A program made the position numbers and the translations under genes. Source: a virus. Taken from it: a DNA stretch of 19,596 nt. Shown one piece after another: positions 2,901 to 13,999 of this stretch (the stretch's first letter is position 1; every line of letters begins with the position of its first letter). Location: IMG/VR virus record IMGVR_UViG_3300045988_063098. The stretch is one strand, 5' to 3'. The notes beneath the pieces are model-generated. The model saw nothing but the letters and a program-made list of their open reading frames with translations, made no database searches and had not been told where the DNA came from.

Positions 2901-3304
2901 TATTTCTTTTCTCCTTTAAATTCTTCCAGCAACTCTTTTCCAGAATCTAGTTGCGCTGTGTATTTCTGCAATTCTTCCTGAACTCTAGCTGTCATAAACT
3001 TGGGAATAAAGACACCCATAACAGCGAGATTTTCCATAATTGAAAGTGCATAATACAAATTAATGATAATTAGTAGAATCTGACCGACTGCCATAGCTTG
3101 GATATAGGTTAAAAATACCGCTACAAAATAGTAAAAAATGAATGTGCAGGTATGTTTGATAACCCCTTTTAAGCCCGTCCAGCTATCGGTCACTTTCCAT
3201 TTCCAAGCCTTTAGAAAGCCTGTGATAAAGTCAAACAGAATCAAAGCAAAAAGGAAAGTGATATAGTCGCCTTTGGCAACGTCTAACATAATATTATATA
3301 ACAT
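2900..3304 (-). CDS. cph1: Holin (Cph1-like, 134 aa)
   Basis: Sits immediately upstream of and overlaps the lysin. It has multiple hydrophobic TM segments and a charged C-terminal tail ([11 protein letters not shown]). Size matches the Cp-1 holin. SD GAGGT lies 9 nt upstream of the ATG. Confidence 0.85.
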
Positions 3305-4340
3305 GATTGATAACCTCTATAAATTTGTTTTTAGTCTCTAAATCTTCATAAATAAACATATTTTTTAAGTACAAACTCCGTAAAGTTTTACCTAGTGCGC
3401 TGGCTTTATTCAAGTAAACAAACCCGTCCTCCACCTGCTCTACTTCCAGACAATAAGCCGTCAAATTCTTGTCAAAACCTTTAGCAATATATACCATATT
3501 GTCGATGTAGTACCCTGTTAAGAAAGTACCGTCACAATAAAAGCTATATAGCCTAGACTTTAAGCCTTTAATCTTCGCTATATTCTTATCGTTTTTAATC
3601 TGAAACTCGTTATTAGCAACGCTTTCATAAATGCTGGACTTACTCAAGAGTTTAAAGAATCCACTTTCTTTTTCTTCCTCTGTCTGGAAAGCTGAATGAG
3701 GGGGGAACTCTATAAGGGTTGCATACTGTTTCATATTGTAAAAGCGCTTGCCGTTGTCGTCATAGAATTTCAGAAAGGCAAAATAGGGGTTGTTGAAATT
3801 ACTTGCATTTGATAGTAGATAAGCATGGCAACCGTCACGCCTACGAAAAACAGAAAAGATAAAGTTTAGTAATGCTTCCACCTCGTTATCAAGATACCTC
3901 TTTTTACTGGTAACGTCTATCAATACTTCATCGTATAAGATACTCATAACCTCATCATACTCTGACCCTTTCAAGTCTACCCAAGTAGAAAGGCTCTTGA
4001 GATAGCAAACGATTTTCCCGTTTAAAATAATCTTAGTAGAAGATAAAACTAAAATATTTTCCTCTTCTTCCATATTGTCCGCTCTGAAAATAATCTTAGT
4101 ATGAATTTTACTAGCGTCACTGTCTATCACTTCAAAATTTGTAAAGACTTGTTTTAGTAGTTCCGTAGTAAAAAACTTGTCTTTGTCTATTCGGTCAAGC
4201 TCTGACTTGTTCCGTCTTAAATAGATGAATTGCTCTCCTTTATCTATGAACCGTTTTAGCAGGTGCTTTTTGAGTGCGAAAGTCTTTCCAATCCCACGCC
4301 CACCGATAACAAAATTAAGATACTGGTTATATGATAGCAT
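3294..4340 (-). CDS. DNA encapsidation (packaging) ATPase, phi29 gp16 homolog
   Basis: [48 protein letters not shown] aligns by eye with phi29 gp16 (MLSYDRILNFVIGARGIGKSYAMK...GEQFIYVRRYKPEL). Walker A is GGRGIGKT and Walker B-like is ILYDEV. The true start may be an upstream in-frame ATC at 4376 (see findings). Confidence 0.9.
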
Positions 4341-4385
4341 TTTCTGCGGATTGTACCATTTTTCAGTTGCTTCGATAGAAAATCA

Positions 4386-4413
4386 CTCCTTTCAATTTTA
4401 TTATATCATACTT
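4386..4413 (-). promoter_or_regulatory. Internal promoter (extended -10 only) plus conserved leader/SD for the ATPase-holin-lysin unit
   Basis: On the minus strand: TGaTATAAT (TG 4408-4407, TATAAT 4405-4400) with no good -35 (AACCCG). AAAATTGAAAGGAG (4399-4386) follows. The same AAGTATGATATA...AAAATTGAAAGGAG module recurs at 14540-14574. Confidence 0.55.
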
Positions 4414-6252
4414 TTAAAAATTCGGGTTGTTTTTCTGAATATCAAACAAAATGCCGTCTTCTTTATTGGCTGAATAGTTCCAGATTCTGACTCCTGATTG
4501 AAAAATAGCCTGAATAGCGTTCATGTGCGACTGGTTGGCTCTTAGTGTTCCAAGGTTTACGTTAATCATCTTGATATAATTAAACCGCTTTCTTGACCTC
4601 ATCACGCTTAAAGCGTCATTAGTGAACCAGTTGACAAGCACCCCGTAGCATTTGATATACTCGTTCGCCCGTCCCATGATTTCTTTCTGAGCCAAGGAGA
4701 CTTTCCAATAAACGTCTGTCAGTCTGTTCCCACTCTGGAAAGCAAGGTCATTTCCGATTTGTTGCACGCTGATAGGTTGGTTCTGTAGGTCTGCCATTGT
4801 TGCGTTGTATGCTCTGATAGATTGGTCAAGTGCTATTTTAGATTTCATGTTTGCAAGGGCATTAGATTGAGATTTCAAAGCGTTGTTTTCACTTGTGAAA
4901 CCTTGTTGTACTACCTTATCATTATAATCACGGTTAGCGTTAAAGACTTTCATACCACCAGACGCAAGCCCACCAAGTGCGCCCCCAAAGTTCCCTGTTA
5001 AGAGATTCCCAGCTACGTTTAAGATACCACTAGCGCCCTCCGTCCATTGGTTGATGTTGGCGCTGTCTACAGCAAATTGTGCGTTATAGCTGGCTTGTGA
5101 GTTGGCTGTAGCAACTTGTTTATTAGATAGGTCTACGCTCTGTTTGAGCATGTCCCGATTCTCTTTAAATGTTAGCTGTGTATGTTCCATCTGGTTCTTA
5201 TGTGATTGAATATAACTGGCTTCTGCGTCATTTAGGATTGCAATGCTTTTCCCTGTCACGTCATTCAATCCGTATTTAAAATGCTCTGGATTGTGTTCTG
5301 CCCAGTCGCCACTCTCCAAGCTGTCCAGAATGTTCTTATCTGCATAGCTTACATTGTTAGCGTTGTTATACTCAAGGAAATTGATATGCACCTGATTGCT
5401 ATCGCCAAGGCTTCCGCTGACAATCACTTTATACTTGTGAGCTTCGTCTATCGTTCTCGGTAAATACTGCGGTTGATACACATAACTATTCCCGTATATA
5501 TCATACAATTCTATTTCAGTAAACTCACTATTTAATAGCTGTACTTCTATTTCTAGGTCGTCTTTTCCCATGTATGAGCGTAAGCCCTCTTGTATCTGGT
5601 CATAAGCAATTTTTAGGAGGTTAGGGATTTCATAAACATTAGGTCGATAGTCAAAAAATCCGTCCACCTCAATCAGTAGGGCTTCCACGTCAAAGGCTGT
5701 TTTTGAGTAGTCCCCATTGCCCAGTTGCTTATCCCCTGTGTTCCCTGTGATTTCTCCAATATCGCCACCTGCTACGATTTCAGGAGGGTAGATAATGCTT
5801 TCAATGTTGTCAACCGTATCTATTCCAGTTCTCTCTGTCGTGTAACCGCTCCAAGCGTAGTTTTGCTCTATCACGTCATAGCTTGAGCCGTTGACCGCTG
5901 ATATAACAGACGTATGCCCCCAGATGTTATTACCTGATGGGATATAGCAGACAATACAGCCTACTCTTAAATCAGACCAAGACGGGTCAAAGCGGACTTT
6001 CCAGCCCAGCGCTTCCCAGTCATAATCGCCCCCAATGTTGCTGGCACTCATGCCCCTCTGCGTATCGCTTCCGCTGGCTTGTCTGCCGTTGCCGTTTGGG
6101 TTTGGGGTGTTGATACCTCCCCCAATGTCACATCCGCCCAACAGTTGAGAATACAAGGCGACTAGCCCGTAACATTGCCCACTTCCCACGGTTGTTCCTA
6201 CCCGTGATTTGATTTCATTTAGTGCTTTTAGCGTTTCTGTTGCTTCTGCCAT
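4414..6252 (-). CDS. Tail protein: N-terminal CHAP peptidoglycan hydrolase fused to the C-terminal half of a phi29 gp9-like tail knob (612 aa)
   Basis: CHAP signature: GSGQCYGLVALY (Cys), GHTSVISAV (His), DVIEQNY. The C-terminal ~400 aa aligns by eye with the C-terminal half of phi29 gp9: VSGSLGDSNQV vs VRGSLGVSNKV, IAILNDAEASYIQ vs IAILNDYLSAYLQ, a Gly-rich hydrophobic loop, and RKRFNYIKM...IQAIFQSGVRIWN vs RKAFNYVQT...IRTIFDNGITLWH. Confidence 0.8.
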   Translation of the reverse strand: MAEATETLKALNEIKSRVGTTVGSGQCYGLVALYSQLLGGCDIGGGINTPNPNGNGRQASGSDTQRGMSASNIGGDYDWEALGWKVRFDPSWSDLRVGCIVCYIPSGNNIWGHTSVISAVNGSSYDVIEQNYAWSGYTTERTGIDTVDNIESIIYPPEIVAGGDIGEITGNTGDKQLGNGDYSKTAFDVEALLIEVDGFFDYRPNVYEIPNLLKIAYDQIQEGLRSYMGKDDLEIEVQLLNSEFTEIELYDIYGNSYVYQPQYLPRTIDEAHKYKVIVSGSLGDSNQVHINFLEYNNANNVSYADKNILDSLESGDWAEHNPEHFKYGLNDVTGKSIAILNDAEASYIQSHKNQMEHTQLTFKENRDMLKQSVDLSNKQVATANSQASYNAQFAVDSANINQWTEGASGILNVAGNLLTGNFGGALGGLASGGMKVFNANRDYNDKVVQQGFTSENNALKSQSNALANMKSKIALDQSIRAYNATMADLQNQPISVQQIGNDLAFQSGNRLTDVYWKVSLAQKEIMGRANEYIKCYGVLVNWFTNDALSVMRSRKRFNYIKMINVNLGTLRANQSHMNAIQAIFQSGVRIWNYSANKEDGILFDIQKNNPNF

Positions 6253-6255
6253 TGT

Positions 6256-7746
6256 TTACCCTTTCTGTAACTCGTCTTGAATGGTTGAAAGCCAAGCGTT
6301 AGCCTGCTCTATGCGTTCCGCTTCTTTGTAGGCTACACCCTCCCAGTTGTTCATAAAGTCGCTTGCATTGGTGCTGGCGCTGGCTGATGAACTGGCTACC
6401 CGTCTAAACGTGTCCGCCCTGCTCTCTTGGTTCATGAATTGAAATTGTAGGTTAAAATCCCAAAGTGATTTCCCTTGACTTCGTGCAAAGTTCAAAAGCT
6501 CTTCCGCCCTTGGTCCAGTCCATTGTCCTATCCCAATACCTATCCAGTGATTACCGTCTGACCCTCTATAGCCTGCTTCGTTTAAGCTGATAGAGTAGAG
6601 ACTAGCAAAAGCGCCCCAGCTTCCCATGAGGTTTTCCGCTGTTGGCTCTGATTCCATTTTCTCGTACTCGTAACCTGTAGCATAGTCTGCTTCGTATTTT
6701 TTGGCTGTAACGTTGCTTTCTGCTGAAAAGTTCCCGATAATTCCAGCTATCCCTTCTGCTGTTGCGTCTGGTACTAGCTTCTTAATAATTCGGGTCACTA
6801 GCCTAACTCGGCTTTCTTCGGTTGATGTGTCGCCCTCTTCGTTGGTGCTTCCGCTTCCTCCACTTGAACCACTTCCAGAACTTCTATAATTCCGTGTATT
6901 CTTTCGCCCAATCTCTGCAACACTGCCCGTTATATTAGACAAGATTTCTATATAGGTCTTGTCTCCGTCTGCTGTCTCTTTGTATTTTACACCAATATCA
7001 CGACTTAAATACATATTGACAATCTGGTTAACGGTGCTTGACCCGTCCTGATTCAATCCGAAAAGGTGTTTATATAGGTTTTCAAGGTAAAAGCTATCAT
7101 ACTTTTTGCCTTGGAAAATAAAAGGTCTGGACGCTCTACTTTTCAAAATTACAGGGATAAAAAAGTATTTAAAGGTTTTCTGTATACCTGAATAACTCAT
7201 ATTTACGGGGCGGTTTGCCTTGGTGGTCATCTTAATCGTAGGTTTTGCCACGACTACAAGCCACTCTGTATCGATTCCGACTTCTCCAGCGCGTGTAGCG
7301 TACTTAGTCCCAACTGAAAAACCTTGCTGACTGTCTTTCAGCGCCCACAATTCATTAGGCAATGTCCGCTGTTCTACCTGTCCTATCACGTTTAGGCTCT
7401 TCAATTCGTGCTGGTAGGTGTTCCATACATCCACCTCGTAAATAATACGGGTTGCGTCTTCATTGATATAAAGCACGTCAAAGACAAAGGCATAGTAGGT
7501 TCTTCCATTGTTAATAAACCTCATATAAGTTACGTTTTCATATTTCTCCACCCGTCCAGAAATTACTATTGAGCCGTTTCTTTGGGTATATTGAAACTTA
7601 TCATACTCGTAGACAATTTCTATATGTGGATTCGTTTTTGTGAAAAAGTCTTCCATAGCTTCCCTTGTCTCAAAATTGATAACATTGGCATAGTCATTTT
7701 TAAACGGGCTTTTTGCATAAAGCCATATCTTGGTTGATTCTTGCAT
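6256..7746 (-). CDS. Tail protein: N-terminal half of a phi29 gp9-like tail knob fused through a Gly/Ser linker to a C-terminal phage tail lysozyme-like domain (496 aa)
   Basis: Start chosen at ATG 7746 (MQESTKIW) because SD AAAGGAG lies 5 nt upstream and a terminator lies just before it. The longer ORF reaching 7899 would overlap the upstream gene by 115 nt. SPFKNDYANV and YMRFINNGRTYYAFVFDV...YEVDVWNTY match phi29 gp9 (VPFSNDYKNT, YIMFQNADYGNKWFYAFVTEL...FEIDVLQTW). The linker is SSGSGSSGGSGS. The C-terminal GIAGIIGNFSAESN...GIGIGQWTGPRAEELLNFA...FNLQFQFM resembles the phage tail lysozyme family. Confidence 0.8.
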   Translation of the reverse strand: MQESTKIWLYAKSPFKNDYANVINFETREAMEDFFTKTNPHIEIVYEYDKFQYTQRNGSIVISGRVEKYENVTYMRFINNGRTYYAFVFDVLYINEDATRIIYEVDVWNTYQHELKSLNVIGQVEQRTLPNELWALKDSQQGFSVGTKYATRAGEVGIDTEWLVVVAKPTIKMTTKANRPVNMSYSGIQKTFKYFFIPVILKSRASRPFIFQGKKYDSFYLENLYKHLFGLNQDGSSTVNQIVNMYLSRDIGVKYKETADGDKTYIEILSNITGSVAEIGRKNTRNYRSSGSGSSGGSGSTNEEGDTSTEESRVRLVTRIIKKLVPDATAEGIAGIIGNFSAESNVTAKKYEADYATGYEYEKMESEPTAENLMGSWGAFASLYSISLNEAGYRGSDGNHWIGIGIGQWTGPRAEELLNFARSQGKSLWDFNLQFQFMNQESRADTFRRVASSSASASTNASDFMNNWEGVAYKEAERIEQANAWLSTIQDELQKG

Positions 7747-7758
7747 AGATTCTCCTTT

Positions 7759-7784
7759 AAAAATAGGAGGGCTGAAACCCTCCC
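7759..7784 (-). terminator. Intrinsic terminator/attenuator inside the late operon
   Basis: On the minus strand, directly after the TAA (7787-7785): GGGAGGG (7784-7778), loop TTTCAG, CCCTCCT (7771-7765), then ATTTTT (7764-7759). The SD of the next gene follows. Confidence 0.7.
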
Positions 7785-8546
7785 TTATTCTTGTCCTATC
7801 TGTCCTTGTCCCAGCCATTGCCCAGACTGCCTGATTCGGTGCGGTGCTGGTATAGCTTGCCCGACTGCGTTTGCTGGTTGTTCGCTGACGTCTTGCCAAC
7901 CGCCTTTCCTCTGTTGGAAGATACCGCTTGGCCGGTTTAAGGTCTTAAAGATTCCGTCTTTACGGATTGCCCACGGTTTCAACGTTTTAGGCTTTTTCTT
8001 GTTGGTATTATATAGGTACATACCCACATAAAAGGAATTGTCTGAATATTGTCCGTCTGGATAAGATACATTTATATTTAAGGCACTGGCTGATGAACTT
8101 TCTTCGGCTGGTATGGTTACGGTAAAGTCTTGAGAAACTTCATCATTTTTAATCACTTCATCGGTTGTATATCCGCTAAACGTCCAAACGGTGCGCCCGT
8201 TGATTTTAATATCATACTCAACCCGATACCCAGCGTTTGAGCTGACCCGTTTACTCCACCAAAAGAGGGCTTTAACTCTGATTTTAGCCGTGATGGAATT
8301 ATCATCGTTTTTTGTCTCTTCTAGGATTTCAACCGATTCCCCCCAGAACCTCATAGACGCCCATACAGACGGGTCATTTTGCCCGTACTGTATATAGGTT
8401 GTGTTGCCGTTGGTCATATAACCATAATCTGTGTCCCCTGAGAACTGCCACGCATTAGCATAGGCTTCCGTCCAAGGGGCTACACCTGTACCAAAGTTTT
8501 CTACGTTGGCGGTGGTAGAGGTTGAAAATCGTGCTTCTAAAGGCAT
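7785..8546 (-). CDS. Virion structural protein, putative distal/receptor-binding part of the fibre or appendage (253 aa)
   Basis: ORF coupled to the upstream coiled-coil protein by a TAATG overlap. The sequence is aromatic/beta-rich with a basic, Gln-rich C-terminal tail. The function is positional inference only. Confidence 0.45.
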   Translation of the reverse strand: MPLEARFSTSTTANVENFGTGVAPWTEAYANAWQFSGDTDYGYMTNGNTTYIQYGQNDPSVWASMRFWGESVEILEETKNDDNSITAKIRVKALFWWSKRVSSNAGYRVEYDIKINGRTVWTFSGYTTDEVIKNDEVSQDFTVTIPAEESSSASALNINVSYPDGQYSDNSFYVGMYLYNTNKKKPKTLKPWAIRKDGIFKTLNRPSGIFQQRKGGWQDVSEQPANAVGQAIPAPHRIRQSGQWLGQGQIGQE

Positions 8547-9322
8547 TAGATACCTCCTGACAAGTCGTTTTCTGTGCTTCCGTTGTTGGTTCTGATAAAG
8601 CTAGCGCCGTCTGGTGTTCCACCAAATAAGTTAATGTTACCCGTTGCGATGTTGCGCCCTTGGTTAAAGCCACCAGTAAGCCCACCAGTCCAAGCGCCTG
8701 AGCCCTCAAGGTTTTCAATGATTTTGCGTAAGGCATTTTGCAAGCCTGCGTTAGCATTTTCTAGGGCTTCAATCCGTTCCTTGAGTGCGTTGTTTTCTGC
8801 TGTGATACGGTTGTTTAATGTTTCAACTTCTTTTGTGATTCGGTCATCAAGTTTCTTGATTTCCTTTTCTAGCTTATCGTTTAAAGCGTCAATCCGTCCA
8901 TCAAGTCGTTTTACTTCATCATCTACTTTCTTTTCAAGGTCAGCGATTTTCTTATTGACTTTAGCTATTTCAGCGTCAATATAAGGCTTGATAATCTTAT
9001 TATAGTAGATGTCCGCTTTTTTATTAAACCAGTCGTCCGCTTCCTTACTTTCCATGTAACGGCGGATAAGGAGGGGGATAAGTTGCTCCAAGAGTTCTGT
9101 CAAAGCGTTCTTGTAGTCTTCTAGCTCACTTTCCAAAGCTACAAAATCATCTAGTAGTTGCTTAAAGGCACGCTGTAGCCAAGCCAAAAGCTCGTAAACT
9201 GAATTGGCATTATCAAAGCTGGTAGGAATTGAGGGGATAAGCCCCCAACGTTCCACCCAATAGGACGAATAGCGCCCACGGTAAGCCCTGAAAAATTCGT
9301 CTTTAAATTCTTCTGGATTCAT
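8546..9322 (-). CDS. Virion structural protein, putative fibre/appendage shaft with a long coiled coil (258 aa)
   Basis: The N-terminal segment NSVYELLAWLQRAFKQLLDDF is typical of phage fibre N-termini. The central region has periodic charged repeats (KKVDDEVKRLDGRIDALNDKLEKEIKKLDDRITKEVETLNNRI...). The C-terminus is Gly-rich. Confidence 0.5.
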   Translation of the reverse strand: MNPEEFKDEFFRAYRGRYSSYWVERWGLIPSIPTSFDNANSVYELLAWLQRAFKQLLDDFVALESELEDYKNALTELLEQLIPLLIRRYMESKEADDWFNKKADIYYNKIIKPYIDAEIAKVNKKIADLEKKVDDEVKRLDGRIDALNDKLEKEIKKLDDRITKEVETLNNRITAENNALKERIEALENANAGLQNALRKIIENLEGSGAWTGGLTGGFNQGRNIATGNINLFGGTPDGASFIRTNNGSTENDLSGGI

Positions 9323-9337
9323 GCGTTAAAACCTTTC

Positions 9338-10306
9338 TTAGTGTGATTCTTCATCTGCTAATGGTTGTGGAATGTTTCTAGCTGTTTCAGGTTCTGACGC
9401 TGTGTTTGCTCTTGGAAATTCAGCATGAGGAAACTCTGTTGGGTTGCTTGGTGCTGGTGTTGGTGTGTTATCAACGGGCGGTAATGGACTATATTCTAGT
9501 TTAGGTGTAGGGTCTTTATACCCGTCAAAATGCTCTGTAGGAAATTCTATACGTGTTGAAATGCGCTTCTCTTGAAAACGTGGTTCAATAGGCGCTTTTT
9601 TCATACTTGTAAACCATTGATAATATAGTTGGAAATTTTCAATCTGTTCATGCTGGTTAAAGGTCAAAACTAGGTTTTGCTCTGGTGTTAATTCAGCTTT
9701 AACACTTAACAGATAATCATTAAAGATTTTATAAGGTTGGTCGCTGTCTACAAAATCTTCTCTGTTGAAATGGAAGAAAGTAGTTGCACCTTGTTCCCCT
9801 CTAACATGGATAAGCAAGTAACCGTTAAATTCTTCATCATCTTTAAAAGTGATGTTAGTGGTTACTTTTTCAAATTGTCTGAATATTTTACCATAATATC
9901 CTAGTGTTACTGGAATTTTATCAATTTCAGTTTCAATCATTTCTGAAATAGATTCTTTCAAAGCGTCTTCATTTACTGAAATAGCGTCTGATTCTTTTGT
10001 AAATTTAATCAGCTTACCGTCACGCAAAGGGAACTGTGTGAGGTCTTGATTTAGTCCCTCCACTTTCCGTTTATCTGGGTCGCTTCCACTCCATGTAGTA
10101 GAAACTGAAATGTAAGGAATATGAGATTCAACTCCATTGATTTTATCGCCGTCAGCGTTTAAAACTAGGCTTGTGTCCCCGTTCTTGTCCTGTGACAAGT
10201 CAGCAAGCGCCTGCTTACCTTCGATTGATAGGCTTTCTACCCCCTGATGTTTTTGGAACTTAATCCATGAATGAATACCCCGAACCAATTTAGTTGTCTT
10301 TGCCAT
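9338..10306 (-). CDS. Structural-module protein of unknown function (322 aa) with a Pro-rich C-terminal tail
   Basis: ORF with SD AAAGAGGT. It overlaps the upstream gene by 17 nt. The C-terminus PTPKLEYSPLPPVDNTPTPAPSNPTEFP is Pro-rich. I recognise no motif. Confidence 0.6.
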   Translation of the reverse strand: MAKTTKLVRGIHSWIKFQKHQGVESLSIEGKQALADLSQDKNGDTSLVLNADGDKINGVESHIPYISVSTTWSGSDPDKRKVEGLNQDLTQFPLRDGKLIKFTKESDAISVNEDALKESISEMIETEIDKIPVTLGYYGKIFRQFEKVTTNITFKDDEEFNGYLLIHVRGEQGATTFFHFNREDFVDSDQPYKIFNDYLLSVKAELTPEQNLVLTFNQHEQIENFQLYYQWFTSMKKAPIEPRFQEKRISTRIEFPTEHFDGYKDPTPKLEYSPLPPVDNTPTPAPSNPTEFPHAEFPRANTASEPETARNIPQPLADEESH

Positions 10307-10604
10307 CTTCTTTTACCTCTTTCTCTTTATTTATAACCTTAATTGAATTTTTATAAAGCTGTTCAAGTGTTACGATGTAACTCAAGATAGCTTTTAAAGT
10401 CTGTGCCGTAGTACGTTTTTTAAAAATCCGTAGCAATGTATAACCGTCTTTCTTAACATAATCATCTATGTTAGATTTCAAAAACAAGTATATACAATCG
10501 CAAACCGTAGATACACGGGCGCAAGATTGGTCTGTATCGTCTCCGTGTCCCGTGACTTCGATTTGTAGCGTGTCCGTTGTCTCGGACAAGTTGATAATTA
10601 TCAT
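10290..10604 (-). CDS. Prp-like cysteine protease (ribosomal-processing protease / DUF464 family), candidate capsid-maturation protease (104 aa)
   Basis: IEVTGHGDDTDQSCARVSTV matches the Prp signature (..GHA....D.VCAAVS..) with a His20/Cys28 dyad. The later DGY.L.I and L..L..LY motifs and the ~100-aa size also fit. ATGA overlap with the upstream gene. Confidence 0.65.
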   Translation of the reverse strand: MIIINLSETTDTLQIEVTGHGDDTDQSCARVSTVCDCIYLFLKSNIDDYVKKDGYTLLRIFKKRTTAQTLKAILSYIVTLEQLYKNSIKVINKEKEVKEDGKDN

Positions 10605-12901: not shown

Positions 12902-13999
12902 TTAGGCTTCCTCCACATACCAGAAATGAATGTTTTCAAAAAGTGAAAGGCTGGTCATGTAGTGATGATGGTAGAAATAGTTGTAGGTCATGTTGCGAGG
13001 GTTGCGGATTGCTTCCATGTGTACCAGCTTATCTTTATTGATGATGGATTTAGCAGAGATAAGGAAAGCAACTGGCTTGCGTCCATTGTTTGCGCCCTCT
13101 CCCGTAAATTTTTCAAAATCATCTACTACGATTGTGCGAGCGAGTACGCTAGCTTTATCCATGTTGAAAGCGTTAGCTAGAAGCATGTCAAGATGTGTAG
13201 AAAATTCTGCTGAAATAACTAGGTACTGGTCTTCAATCGCCGTCATGTTTGGCACGCCTACGGGGTTATTAAATTGGGTACGGCTTGGAATTGTAAAACG
13301 TTTAGATTGGTTGATAAGTGACTGGTTAAAGTCTACAACAAAGTCTTGTTTGCTTTCGTCAATCTTCGTGCCTGCCACCGTGATTTTTTTAGCTTTACCT
13401 TTAAGGTCAGTATAGCTGACTTCTGCAAGTGATTTCTCAAGTACACCCTTAACAGCTTGGTACTCGTCCAGCGTGTCAGATGAAAGGAGTGATGTAAACA
13501 TTTTATCTACAAACTCATCAAACGCCATGTCAGAAACAAAGGCTTTCTGAATCCAAGCACGCTCAAACGTGCGCTCATAGTAGTTTTCATTGTTCAACGT
13601 GTGATAGAATACTTCGATGTCTGTATCAGCGAATTTGAACGGGCTAACGTCTGATTTTGCGTTATAGGTTTTCTTTTCGGCTGGGTGTACGTAGATTTCT
13701 TGCAATGTGTCCCCAAACTCAAAGGTTTCAGACTTGAAAATAGCAAGCGGATTTTCATAAGTAAGCGCCTTGATAACGGTTGACCCGATACGGTTTACCA
13801 AAGCTGTGAAAAACTCATTGGCATGCTTTTGAAAATCTTGGTACGGTACGGTTGCGTGGTTAATGCGTGCGCCCTCAAGTACAGGAATGTCTGCCTGATA
13901 GTCAGCGCTGGCACGGGTGCGGATAGAGTTCAATAGGTCAATGTTTGAGATTTGCTTCCCTGTCTGACCTGATAAAAAAGTGGTAATTTTATTAGCCAT
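12902..13999 (-). CDS. Major capsid (head) protein, phi29 gp8 / Cp-1 gp9 homolog (365 aa)
   Basis: By-eye alignment to phi29 gp8: [25 protein letters not shown] vs [35 protein letters not shown] vs [27 protein letters not shown] vs METVRNPRGLYWNYYYH. The 365-aa length matches the Cp-1 major head protein as I recall it. Confidence 0.93.
   Translation of the reverse strand: [365 protein letters not shown]

Follow-up and report, generated by a model that had tools for sequence, protein, structure and literature searches.

A phi29 gp9-type tail knob encoded by two adjacent genes, each with a peptidoglycan hydrolase domain at the break, in a Cp-1-like pneumophage

INTRODUCTION

In phi29, the tail knob protein is one chain of 599 amino acids (aa), gp9, and a separate two-domain protein, gp13 (lysozyme and M23), joins the knob non-covalently (PMC6542822). 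The DNA analysed here, IMG/VR virus record IMGVR_UViG_3300045988_063098 (19,596 nucleotides (nt); hereafter the window), raises the question of how such a knob can be encoded in two pieces, and what two wall-degrading domains might do at the place where the pieces meet. The window is a Cp-1-like pneumophage with a Cp-1-type gene set; positions 4300-8000 are 90.5-90.7% identical at the nucleotide level, over the full length, to the Streptococcus pneumoniae podophages Cp-1, SOCP and Cp-7. All genes under discussion lie on the minus strand. An earlier note, made from the sequence of the window, had described two open reading frames (ORFs), ORF-A at 6256-7746 and ORF-B at 4414-6252, separated by TAA and 3 nt. 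Both are present as described, each motif quoted in the note was found at its given position, and the junction reads GGG TAA ACA ATG on the minus strand with both ORFs in the same frame. Our analysis makes it quite likely that the knob of this phage consists of two polypeptides from adjacent, translationally coupled genes, that each polypeptide carries one tethered hydrolase at the break, and that this arrangement arose by insertion of a cassette into a knob gene that was later cut.

RESULTS AND DISCUSSION

The two ORFs carry the halves of a gp9-type knob

ORF-A (496 aa) is the equivalent of ORF18 of SOCP and Cp-7 and of orf17 plus orf18 of Cp-1, and ORF-B (612 aa) is the equivalent of ORF19 of SOCP and Cp-7 and of Cp-1 orf19. 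The ATG of ORF-A (7746-7744) is preceded by a Shine-Dalgarno (SD) sequence, AAAGGAG (7752-7758), that ends 5 nt before it. In Pfam searches, residues 5-114 of ORF-A matched Caud_tail_N (PF16838; E = 2.3e-12, 47.9 bits against a cut-off of 27), and residues 461-592 of ORF-B matched phi29_gp9_C (PF20934; E = 1.1e-14, 54.6 bits against a cut-off of 27). A sequence search of the PDB aligned ORF-A 5-263 with phi29 gp9 9-272 (E = 3e-9), and ORF-B 236-361 and 478-593 with gp9 324-430 and 475-586 (E = 1e-8). From these aligned blocks, the break falls at about gp9 residue 273, and essentially no knob sequence has been lost. The knob N half (6892-7746; ORF-A residues 1-285) comprises a tail-tube-like beta-sandwich, to which the Caud_tail_N match belongs, followed by an extended linker and by the strands with which the distal beta-sheet domain begins. 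The knob C half occupies 4417-5682 (ORF-B residues 191-612). Together with the structure matches described below, the profiles and alignments uphold the claim of the earlier note that one ORF (ORF-A) holds the N half of a gp9-type knob and the other (ORF-B) its C half. Whereas a gp9-type protomer is one chain of about 570-600 aa, here two ORFs of 496 and 612 aa are separated by a conserved stop, and about 400 aa of the combined ORF-A and ORF-B do not belong to the knob.

Between the two gp9-aligned blocks of ORF-B lies the equivalent of the phi29 gp9 L loop and the Andhra channel loop (4822-5169; ORF-B residues 362-477). The L loop of phi29 is pore-forming and membrane-active, and a channel loop has been described for Andhra (PMC6542822, PMC9710869). 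In the window, this region contains a glycine-zipper-like hydrophobic stretch, GASGILNVAGNLLTGNFGGALGGLASGGMKVF, at ORF-B residues 406-437 (4942-5037) with a weak Pfam match to C19orf12, and the equivalent region of a one-gene homologue, P0162 (see below), forms long helices in its model. Residues 362-477 are thus the predicted counterpart of the L loop, and their membrane activity is likewise a prediction.

A lysozyme and a CHAP domain flank the break

A flexible linker (6772-6891; ORF-A residues 286-325), which holds SSGSGSSGGSGS at residues 289-300 (6847-6882), leads from the knob N half to a Phage_lysozyme2 domain (6259-6771; residues 326-496), in which GIAGIIGNFSAESN occupies residues 332-345. 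Residues 328-487 matched PF18013 with E = 1.6e-21 (77.4 bits, cut-off 28.2). When the lysozyme domain was searched with phmmer, the N domain of phi29 gp13 (3csr) was the sole sequence match in the PDB (E = 0.015), with the ES and GQWT motifs aligned; the catalytic Glu45 of gp13 is aligned with Glu343 of ORF-A, and so is the GxGxxQWT motif. Foldseek compared a model of ORF-A with 3csr at a template modelling (TM) score of 0.69 (E = 5e-5). The lysozyme of ORF-A is a homologue of the gp13 N domain. The earlier note had called this domain glycosidase-like; that it is a lysozyme agrees with the description, which can be narrowed from any glycosidase to the gp13 N-domain family.

ORF-B opens with the CHAP domain (5758-6252; residues 1-165), a predicted amidase or endopeptidase whose catalytic residues are Cys27, His113, Glu129 and Asn131; the motifs GQCYGLV and GHTSVI are found at residues 25-31 and 112-117. 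The Pfam match to CHAP (PF05257) covers residues 23-131 (E = 4e-6, 27.5 bits against a cut-off of 26), and the PDB sequence search aligned residues 6-141 with the CHAP lysin Ly7917 (5d74; E = 8e-13). A Gly-rich linker (5683-5757; residues 166-190) joins the CHAP domain to the knob C half.

The four CHAP residues and Glu343 of the lysozyme are invariant in 56 distinct sequences, including those of a distant clade. Purifying selection acts on both enzymes and on the knob parts: the pairwise ratio of non-synonymous to synonymous substitution rates (dN/dS) was 0.04-0.09 in each of six segments (knob N half, linker, lysozyme, CHAP, linker, knob C half), with 0.05 for the CHAP domain. With Pfam scores above the cut-offs, the matches to 5d74 and 3csr and the invariant catalytic residues, the inserted segments are what the note had taken them for, a phage tail lysozyme and a CHAP domain; in the profile searches it had proposed as a check, all four placements (both gp9 halves and both enzymes) lie above the curated cut-offs. 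Pfam scans of the other ORFs of the window revealed no peptidoglycan hydrolase besides a Cpl-1-like, holin-associated endolysin, and no separate gene for a gp13-like or GyH-CHAP lysin. The insert resembles a two-domain tail lysin of the gp13 or PlyCA type that has been built into a knob gene.

Relatives with a one-piece knob gene and the origin of the split

A word-seeded homologue search with ORF-B returned only proteins that are 87-92% identical. Fused forms surfaced when the knob C half (ORF-B 166-612) was used as the query against 1.84 billion cluster representatives in an exhaustive HMMER search, which gave 162 hits, 22 of them below 1e-30. Half of these best hits (11 of 22) are 1,039-1,302 aa long and match the query at their C end; in them, Pfam detects Caud_tail_N at the N terminus, followed by one to three hydrolase domains and gp9_C at the C terminus. 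The counts of fused and split forms were taken from 50%-identity cluster representatives and a handful of inspected contigs. Among the representatives, 11 are fused, in 6 the knob C half is joined to a peptidase, and 4 consist of the knob C half alone.

The fused protein P0162 (1132 aa) has the order Caud_tail_N, Phage_lysozyme2, CHAP and gp9_C and is colinear with ORF-A followed by ORF-B. Its gene contains no internal stop and no run of N, and its contig (L081) is syntenic with the window, with appendage-like genes, knob, gp16 ATPase, holin and endolysin. Compared with SOCP ORF18 plus ORF19, P0162 is 42% identical with 99% of its length aligned. In a multiple alignment, the two ORFs of the window tile P0162 end to end, and at the position of the window's stop P0162 has a linker of about 45 residues. 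These syntenic one-ORF relatives support the proposal of the earlier note that an internal insertion was followed by a split into two polypeptides.

The other fused proteins differ in the enzymes they carry. Phage_lysozyme2 was found in P0173 as well as P0162, Glucosaminidase with CHAP in P0163-P0165, Glucosaminidase with M23 in P0170, an M23-like segment without a Pfam call together with Phage_lysozyme2 in P0171, and Glucosaminidase as the only detected domain in P0169 and P0176. P0167 (1268 aa) apparently has three cargo domains, Glucosaminidase, a GDSL-like segment and Amidase_5; the GDSL-like esterase match (residues 552-654; E = 2.5e-5) is below the Pfam cut-off, and judged by this match the segment could act on teichoic acid or O-acetyl groups.

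Split genes occur in at least four lineages. The cut lies between the enzymes in the window, L078, L083 and L084. L083 has knob N with Glucosaminidase, a 42-nt spacer with AAAGGAGG, and M23 with knob C; L084 has knob N with Glucosaminidase, an ATGA overlap, and Amidase_5 with knob C. In the distant clade of L078 (2954-5470) and L080 (2684-5188), whose ORF-A is 39-40% identical to that of the window, lysozyme and CHAP are split at the equivalent site with a 4-nt spacer. In the ORF-B proteins of this clade (834-838 aa), the knob and loop regions contain internal insertions, and the knob is followed by a C-terminal tail, about 145 residues long, that has no Pfam match. L085 (504-3750) is cut elsewhere, after both enzymes: a 658-aa protein with knob N, Glucosaminidase and CHAP is followed by a 22-nt spacer and a 415-aa protein with knob C alone, which reveals a second permissive cut point in the knob gene. 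An apparent second split in L082 (ORFs of 191 and 966 aa) was rejected, as it coincides with a run of 24 N at 3289-3312 of the metagenome scaffold and is no fission. Assembly gaps of this kind can inflate fission counts.

In a neighbour-joining tree of the knob C region, calculated without support values, split forms are placed among fused ones. The Cp-1 clade is nearest to the fused P0162, and the split P0166 is nearest to the fused P0167, both of which carry Amidase_5.

The data favour fission of a one-piece gene rather than fusion. In the opposite scenario, which we regard as unlikely, the ancestral knob was encoded by two genes, as in phi29-like phages that infect Gram-negative bacteria, the N-part gene gained a lysozyme at its end and the C-part gene, independently, a peptidase at its start, and later loss of the stop produced the one-ORF forms. 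Another phi29-like branch does have split knobs whose C part bears extra domains (PMC11476376), but knobs are in one piece in phi29, C1, Andhra and most of the distant homologues. Likewise, the most distant clade with lysozyme and CHAP (L078/L080) is split, whereas fused forms are the majority among the cluster representatives and show many enzyme combinations. Several lineages carry split forms, but these pair with fused forms bearing the same enzymes. The cut points differ (between the enzymes, or after both in L085), and so do the junctions (spacers of 3, 4, 42 and 22 nt, and the ATGA overlap), which is more in keeping with repeated fission. Finally, the in-frame spacing of 3 nt in the window would allow fusion by stop loss in one step, but P0162 is not the product of a simple stop loss because of its linker of about 45 aa at this position.

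Most probably, the arrangement began with a cassette similar to a two-domain tail lysin that entered a hairpin of an ancestral one-piece knob gene near gp9 residue 273, and the gene was afterwards cut in the linker between the two enzymes. As a speculation, the cut may turn a doubly anchored loop into two singly anchored arms, with more reach or easier folding. With somewhat less confidence than for the window itself, but still as the better guess, we propose that the hairpin near gp9 residue 273 serves generally as a cargo slot in a large clade of small Cp-1-like podophages, most of them uncultured. Between one and three wall-degrading domains would occupy the slot interchangeably, with at least five families represented (Phage_lysozyme2, Glucosaminidase, CHAP, Amidase_5 and M23) and possibly a GDSL-like sixth; the slot would replace a separate gp13-type tail lysin, and the gene would repeatedly have been cut within the cargo, with the knob fold rebuilt from two chains.

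The CHAP domain may also have been exchanged on its own. Sequence identity to P0162 is 51% for the lysozyme and 42-50% for the knob parts, and 35% for the CHAP domain. Outside the Cp-1 clade, the closest relatives of the window's CHAP domain belong to tail-associated lysins (Tal, 'antireceptor' or minor tail proteins) of streptococcal siphophages, with 33-39% identity (up to 38.6%, E down to 7e-19); for siphophages of S. thermophilus, S. iniae and S. uberis, the identity is 35-39%. Because the CHAP domain is no closer to that of P0162 than to those of the siphophages, the peptidase module was possibly swapped with phages of the same host genus; the identities hint at such an exchange.

The separation into two chains is conserved

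Related loci bear on the questions whether the stop is real and whether it is read through. From IMG/VR, 71 related loci were retrieved (66-99% aa identity in ORF-B), and the junction was readable in 69 of them, which with the window makes 70. In the window, the junction G AAA GGG TAA ACA (6253-6265) consists of an SD-like GAAAGGG (6259-6265), the stop (6256-6258) and the 3-nt spacer (6253-6255), followed by the ATG of ORF-B. A stop is present at the junction in all 70 loci. It is TAA, TAG or TGA, TAA being the commonest, and sometimes two stops occur in tandem (TGA TAA). The spacer is 3 nt long in 60 loci and 1-2 nt long in the other 10, where the ORFs are consequently out of frame, and its bases are freely variable. 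A purine-rich, SD-like run is found in the last codons of ORF-A in every readable locus, and in each case ORF-B has a separate ATG with an SD-like GAAAGG or AGGAGG in front of it. The two-gene layout of the isolates SOCP and Cp-7 is identical. The separation into two chains is conserved, and the frame relation is not. From the 3-nt spacer and the SD sequence within the last codons of ORF-A, coupled translation and roughly equal amounts of the two chains would be expected.

TAA is the least leaky stop codon in bacteria. It is very improbable that the ORFs are in effect one gene, with readthrough or recoding at the TAA (6256-6258) yielding a single knob chain of 1,110 aa as the major product or as a needed minor one. 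Although the ORFs are in the same frame, one sense codon apart, and this spacing is kept in 60 of the 70 loci, the frames differ in the remaining 10, the spacer of the distant clade is 4 nt long, the junction of L084 is an ATGA overlap, and tandem stops occur. That the frame relation is not conserved speaks against readthrough fusion as an obligatory feature. Relatives with a single chain exist, and these should be functional, but the spacer bases of the split loci vary like a non-coding position, the stop is mostly TAA, and ORF-B is always provided with its own start codon and SD-like sequence. Readthrough fusion as a required feature was rejected after this survey of 70 junctions.

The idea that the split is a sequencing or assembly artefact, or a nonsense mutation in a decaying knob gene whose enzyme domains are functionless relics, can practically be dismissed: the original Cp-1 record does have frameshift errors in just these genes (orf17, orf18 and orf19), and L082 shows how a scaffold gap of 24 N can mimic a split, but two isolates sequenced independently and 70 metagenomic loci from many samples all carry the same stop, the low dN/dS of 0.04-0.09 holds to either side of it and within each enzyme domain, the catalytic residues never vary, and the knob, a structural component, is essential to these phages, which can be cultured (SOCP, PMC4334900).

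Structure models and a possible route of entry

A model of ORF-A alone, calculated from a 31-sequence alignment, reached a mean predicted local distance difference test score (pLDDT) of 64. The lysozyme domain was modelled with confidence and the knob part less so, and residues 279-304, at the flexible linker, were below 50. In Foldseek, its top matches were phi29 gp9, the Andhra knob, C1 gp12 and gp13. We consider this model adequate for the identity of the domains and inadequate for their geometry. For the fused P0162, an AlphaFold2 model from a 37-row alignment that included the ORFs of the window had a pLDDT of 76, with 85-95 in the knob segments. It matched phi29 gp9 over the whole chain (about 1,126-1,139 alignment columns) with a TM score, normalised to gp9, of 0.72-0.75 (5fb4/5fei) and E values of 1e-18 to 9e-21, and it also matched the Andhra knob. 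Its insert matched Ly7917 and PlyCA in the CHAP part and gp13 in the lysozyme part. Two long strands (290-300 and 707-718) enclose the insert (about residues 301-706), which has low-confidence linkers at its edges and in the model looks like an excursion from a beta-hairpin.

The position of the enzymes can be estimated by analogy. In Andhra gp12, the chain begins with an N-terminal beta-sandwich at the top (PMC9710869). The break at about residue 273 falls within the stretch that forms the distal beta-sheet domain, so the enzymes are probably displayed on the distal half of the knob, where they would be exposed on its outer surface. In two-gene knobs of phages of Gram-negative bacteria, inserted immunoglobulin (Ig)-like domains are predicted to project sideways (PMC11476376).

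With these elements, a route of assembly and entry can be proposed. The tube-like domain at the N terminus and the beginning of the distal beta-sheet domain would come from ORF-A. ORF-B would contribute the remainder of the distal domain, the loop that is predicted to be membrane-active, and the C-terminal domain. Folded together, the two chains would make up a gp9-like protomer, with the knob built from six pairs. On Gly/Ser-rich tethers of about 25-40 residues, every pair would hold one lysozyme and one CHAP domain, so that a virion would have six of each. After adsorption, the enzymes could cut glycan strands and peptide stems locally. Once the wall is cut, the knob would reach the membrane, where the glycine-rich loop (ORF-B 362-477) may act as in phi29 (PMC6542822). 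The knob-borne enzymes would thereby replace the job of phi29 gp13 or of the tail-tip lysin of staphylococcal picoviruses.

Several points weigh against this picture of a knob rebuilt from two chains of a formerly single gene. The in-frame stop would make fusion by stop loss easy as well, and the tree that favours fission has no support values. The match of the ORF-A model to gp9 is significant (E = 3e-9), yet its rigid-body TM score is 0.2 and its pLDDT of 64 is mediocre. The match to the whole fold was obtained on a fused homologue of 42% identity and not on the two chains of the window, and the placement of the enzymes at the distal part or tip leans on the order of elements described for Andhra gp12.

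Comparison with known knobs and tail lysins

Cp-1, SOCP and Cp-7 (Cepunavirus) have the same genes in the same order with the same junction as the window, with protein identities of 97% for ORF-A and 98% for ORF-B; in Cp-1 the junction is identical (GGG TAA ACA ATG). No architectural difference was seen, and their genes are annotated as tail proteins. The statement in the earlier note that the Cp-1 paper had pointed to ORFs similar to the N- and C-terminal parts of a phi29 structural protein fits the name of orf17, 'Tail protein N'. In the 1996 record of Cp-1 (NC_001825), ORF-A is broken into orf17 and orf18, and orf19 is 26 residues short (586 aa), beginning at an internal ATG for which a ribosome-binding site is annotated. 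The record lacks one G in TGTTACGG(G)CTAGTC, directly after the codon for the catalytic Cys of the CHAP domain (L001 3360-3460, about window 6150-6260). This missing G explains the short orf19 and the hidden start of the CHAP domain, and the three-ORF layout results from base-calling errors. That orf17 and orf18 are one gene in SOCP has already been noted by Ouennane et al. (PMC4334900). The errors are still present in the Cp-1 RefSeq record.

The Cp-1 record also lists a late promoter, PL6 (L001 3421-3452; record 13078-13109; window about 6215-6255), whose -35 box overlaps the true start codon of ORF-B. Its transcription start point lies about 30 nt inside ORF-B, and if real, its transcripts would have no coding capacity for an intact CHAP domain. 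A simple promoter scan found no promoter at the equivalent site of the window.

With phi29 gp9 (5FB4/5FB5), the window shares the order of the knob parts, probably the knob fold and a predicted membrane-active loop, and with phi29 gp13 (3CSQ/3CSR) the homologous lysozyme, the aligned catalytic Glu and the pairing of a glycosidase with a peptidase. Unlike in phi29, the enzymes are covalently part of the knob chains, CHAP takes the place of M23, and the knob is made of two chains. The free-standing lysozyme plus M23 arrangement of gp13 is not found, as the lysozyme ends ORF-A and the CHAP domain is on the other chain. M23, the peptidase family of gp13, does occur at the insertion site in the relatives P0170 and L083.

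In Andhra, the knob gp12 (8EGS) is homologous to that of the window, and a glycosidase followed by CHAP is located at the distal tail, as predicted for the enzymes of the window. There, the tail-tip lysin gp10 (GyH-linker-CHAP) is a separate dimer whose linker domain plugs into the knob, together with the tip protein gp1 (PMC9710869). P68 gp11 belongs to the same lysin group as Andhra gp10, and PlyCA of phage C1 (4f88) is a structural match of the P0162 insert. In contrast to Andhra, a separate lysin gene is missing from the window, each enzyme would be expected in six copies instead of two, and the glycosidase is of the gp13 family (PF18013). A GyH-CHAP lysin of the picovirus kind is not formed either, since only a stop and a 3-nt spacer lie between lysozyme and CHAP.

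Knobs encoded as an N-part and a C-part gene, as in the window, have been described for Acinetobacter phage Phanie (gp9/gp10), Salmonella phage Astrid and phage DU_PP_III of Pectobacterium, with extra domains at the start of the C part; they were read as the result of insertion and split, and AlphaFold complexes show beta-sheets shared between the chains (PMC11476376). The inserts of these Phanie-type knobs are Ig-like and non-enzymatic, and their N part bears no enzyme, whereas the window has hydrolases on both sides of the break. Pfam and PDB searches found no Ig-like domains at the start of ORF-B and gave CHAP instead. Enzymes inside a structural tail protein are also known from the Tal of streptococcal siphophage TP-J34 (orf45), in which Glucosaminidase (294-403) is directly followed by CHAP (481-584). 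Tal-type lysins differ from the window by an unrelated scaffold (Prophage_tail / Tal), a single chain and another glycosidase family.

In a C1-like phage with a one-piece knob, a separate Phage_lysozyme2 protein is encoded immediately downstream of the knob gene. In S. equinus phage pBovineB21 (L006), the gene at 7158-8585, annotated as 'PlyCA', lies directly downstream of a one-piece knob gene; Phage_lysozyme2 was detected at residues 298-466 of its product and no domain at the N end. By its domain content, this protein seems to be a tail lysin in its own right and not a true PlyCA.

Implications

The genes of Cp-1, their annotation as 'tail' and the relation of their N and C parts to phi29 p9 are already known, as are the two-gene knobs of phages of Gram-negative bacteria with Ig-like inserts and the separate glycosidase-peptidase tail lysins of phi29, Andhra and P68. 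In the searchable literature, we found no description of a hydrolase pair inside a Cp-1-type knob, of fused one-gene relatives, or of the variety of enzymes and cut points at this site. For entry, the arrangement suggests a means by which Cp-1-type pneumophages could get through the thick wall of pneumococci although they lack a separate tail lysin: six lysozymes and six CHAP domains would be tethered to the knob. For protein evolution, an essential, intertwined fold appears to tolerate an insertion of about 400 residues and repeated fission, and natural fused and split versions can be compared. ORF-A residues 326-496 and ORF-B residues 1-165, along with the glucosaminidase, M23 and Amidase_5 domains of the relatives, are compact, presumably virion-borne hydrolases and candidates for anti-streptococcal lysins distinct from the well-studied endolysin Cpl-1. 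The insertion site is a candidate position for the display of foreign domains on the tails of small podophages. If the cargo slot is real, it would offer a natural way of fitting entry enzymes to new cell walls, and engineering would find a site there ready for use. For annotation, the public Cp-1 reference record misannotates these genes.

Other features of the window

The remaining genes of the window include a phi29-type connector, a major capsid protein, a protein-primed DNA polymerase, a gp16-type packaging ATPase and a holin, and the endolysin is a GH25 protein with choline-binding repeats. In the annotations of SOCP and Cp-7, ORF18 starts 24 codons further upstream (520 aa; window 7747-7818) and overlaps the preceding gene. 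The 496-aa form is likelier, because the strong AAAGGAG precedes the ATG at 7746 and the conserved sequence of all homologues, the fused ones included, begins there. Between the stop of the upstream gene (7785) and the ribosome-binding site of ORF-A, a terminator-like hairpin, GGGAGGGTTTCAGCCCTCCT, followed by ATTTTT, was observed at 7765-7784 on the minus strand; no such signal is present between ORF-A and ORF-B. At 10290-10604 on the minus strand, a 104-aa ORF shows a weak match to the Prp cysteine protease (E = 0.0014, 19 bits, under the cut-off) over nearly the full length of the profile. Judged by this match, it may encode a head-protein processing protease of Cp-1-type phages.

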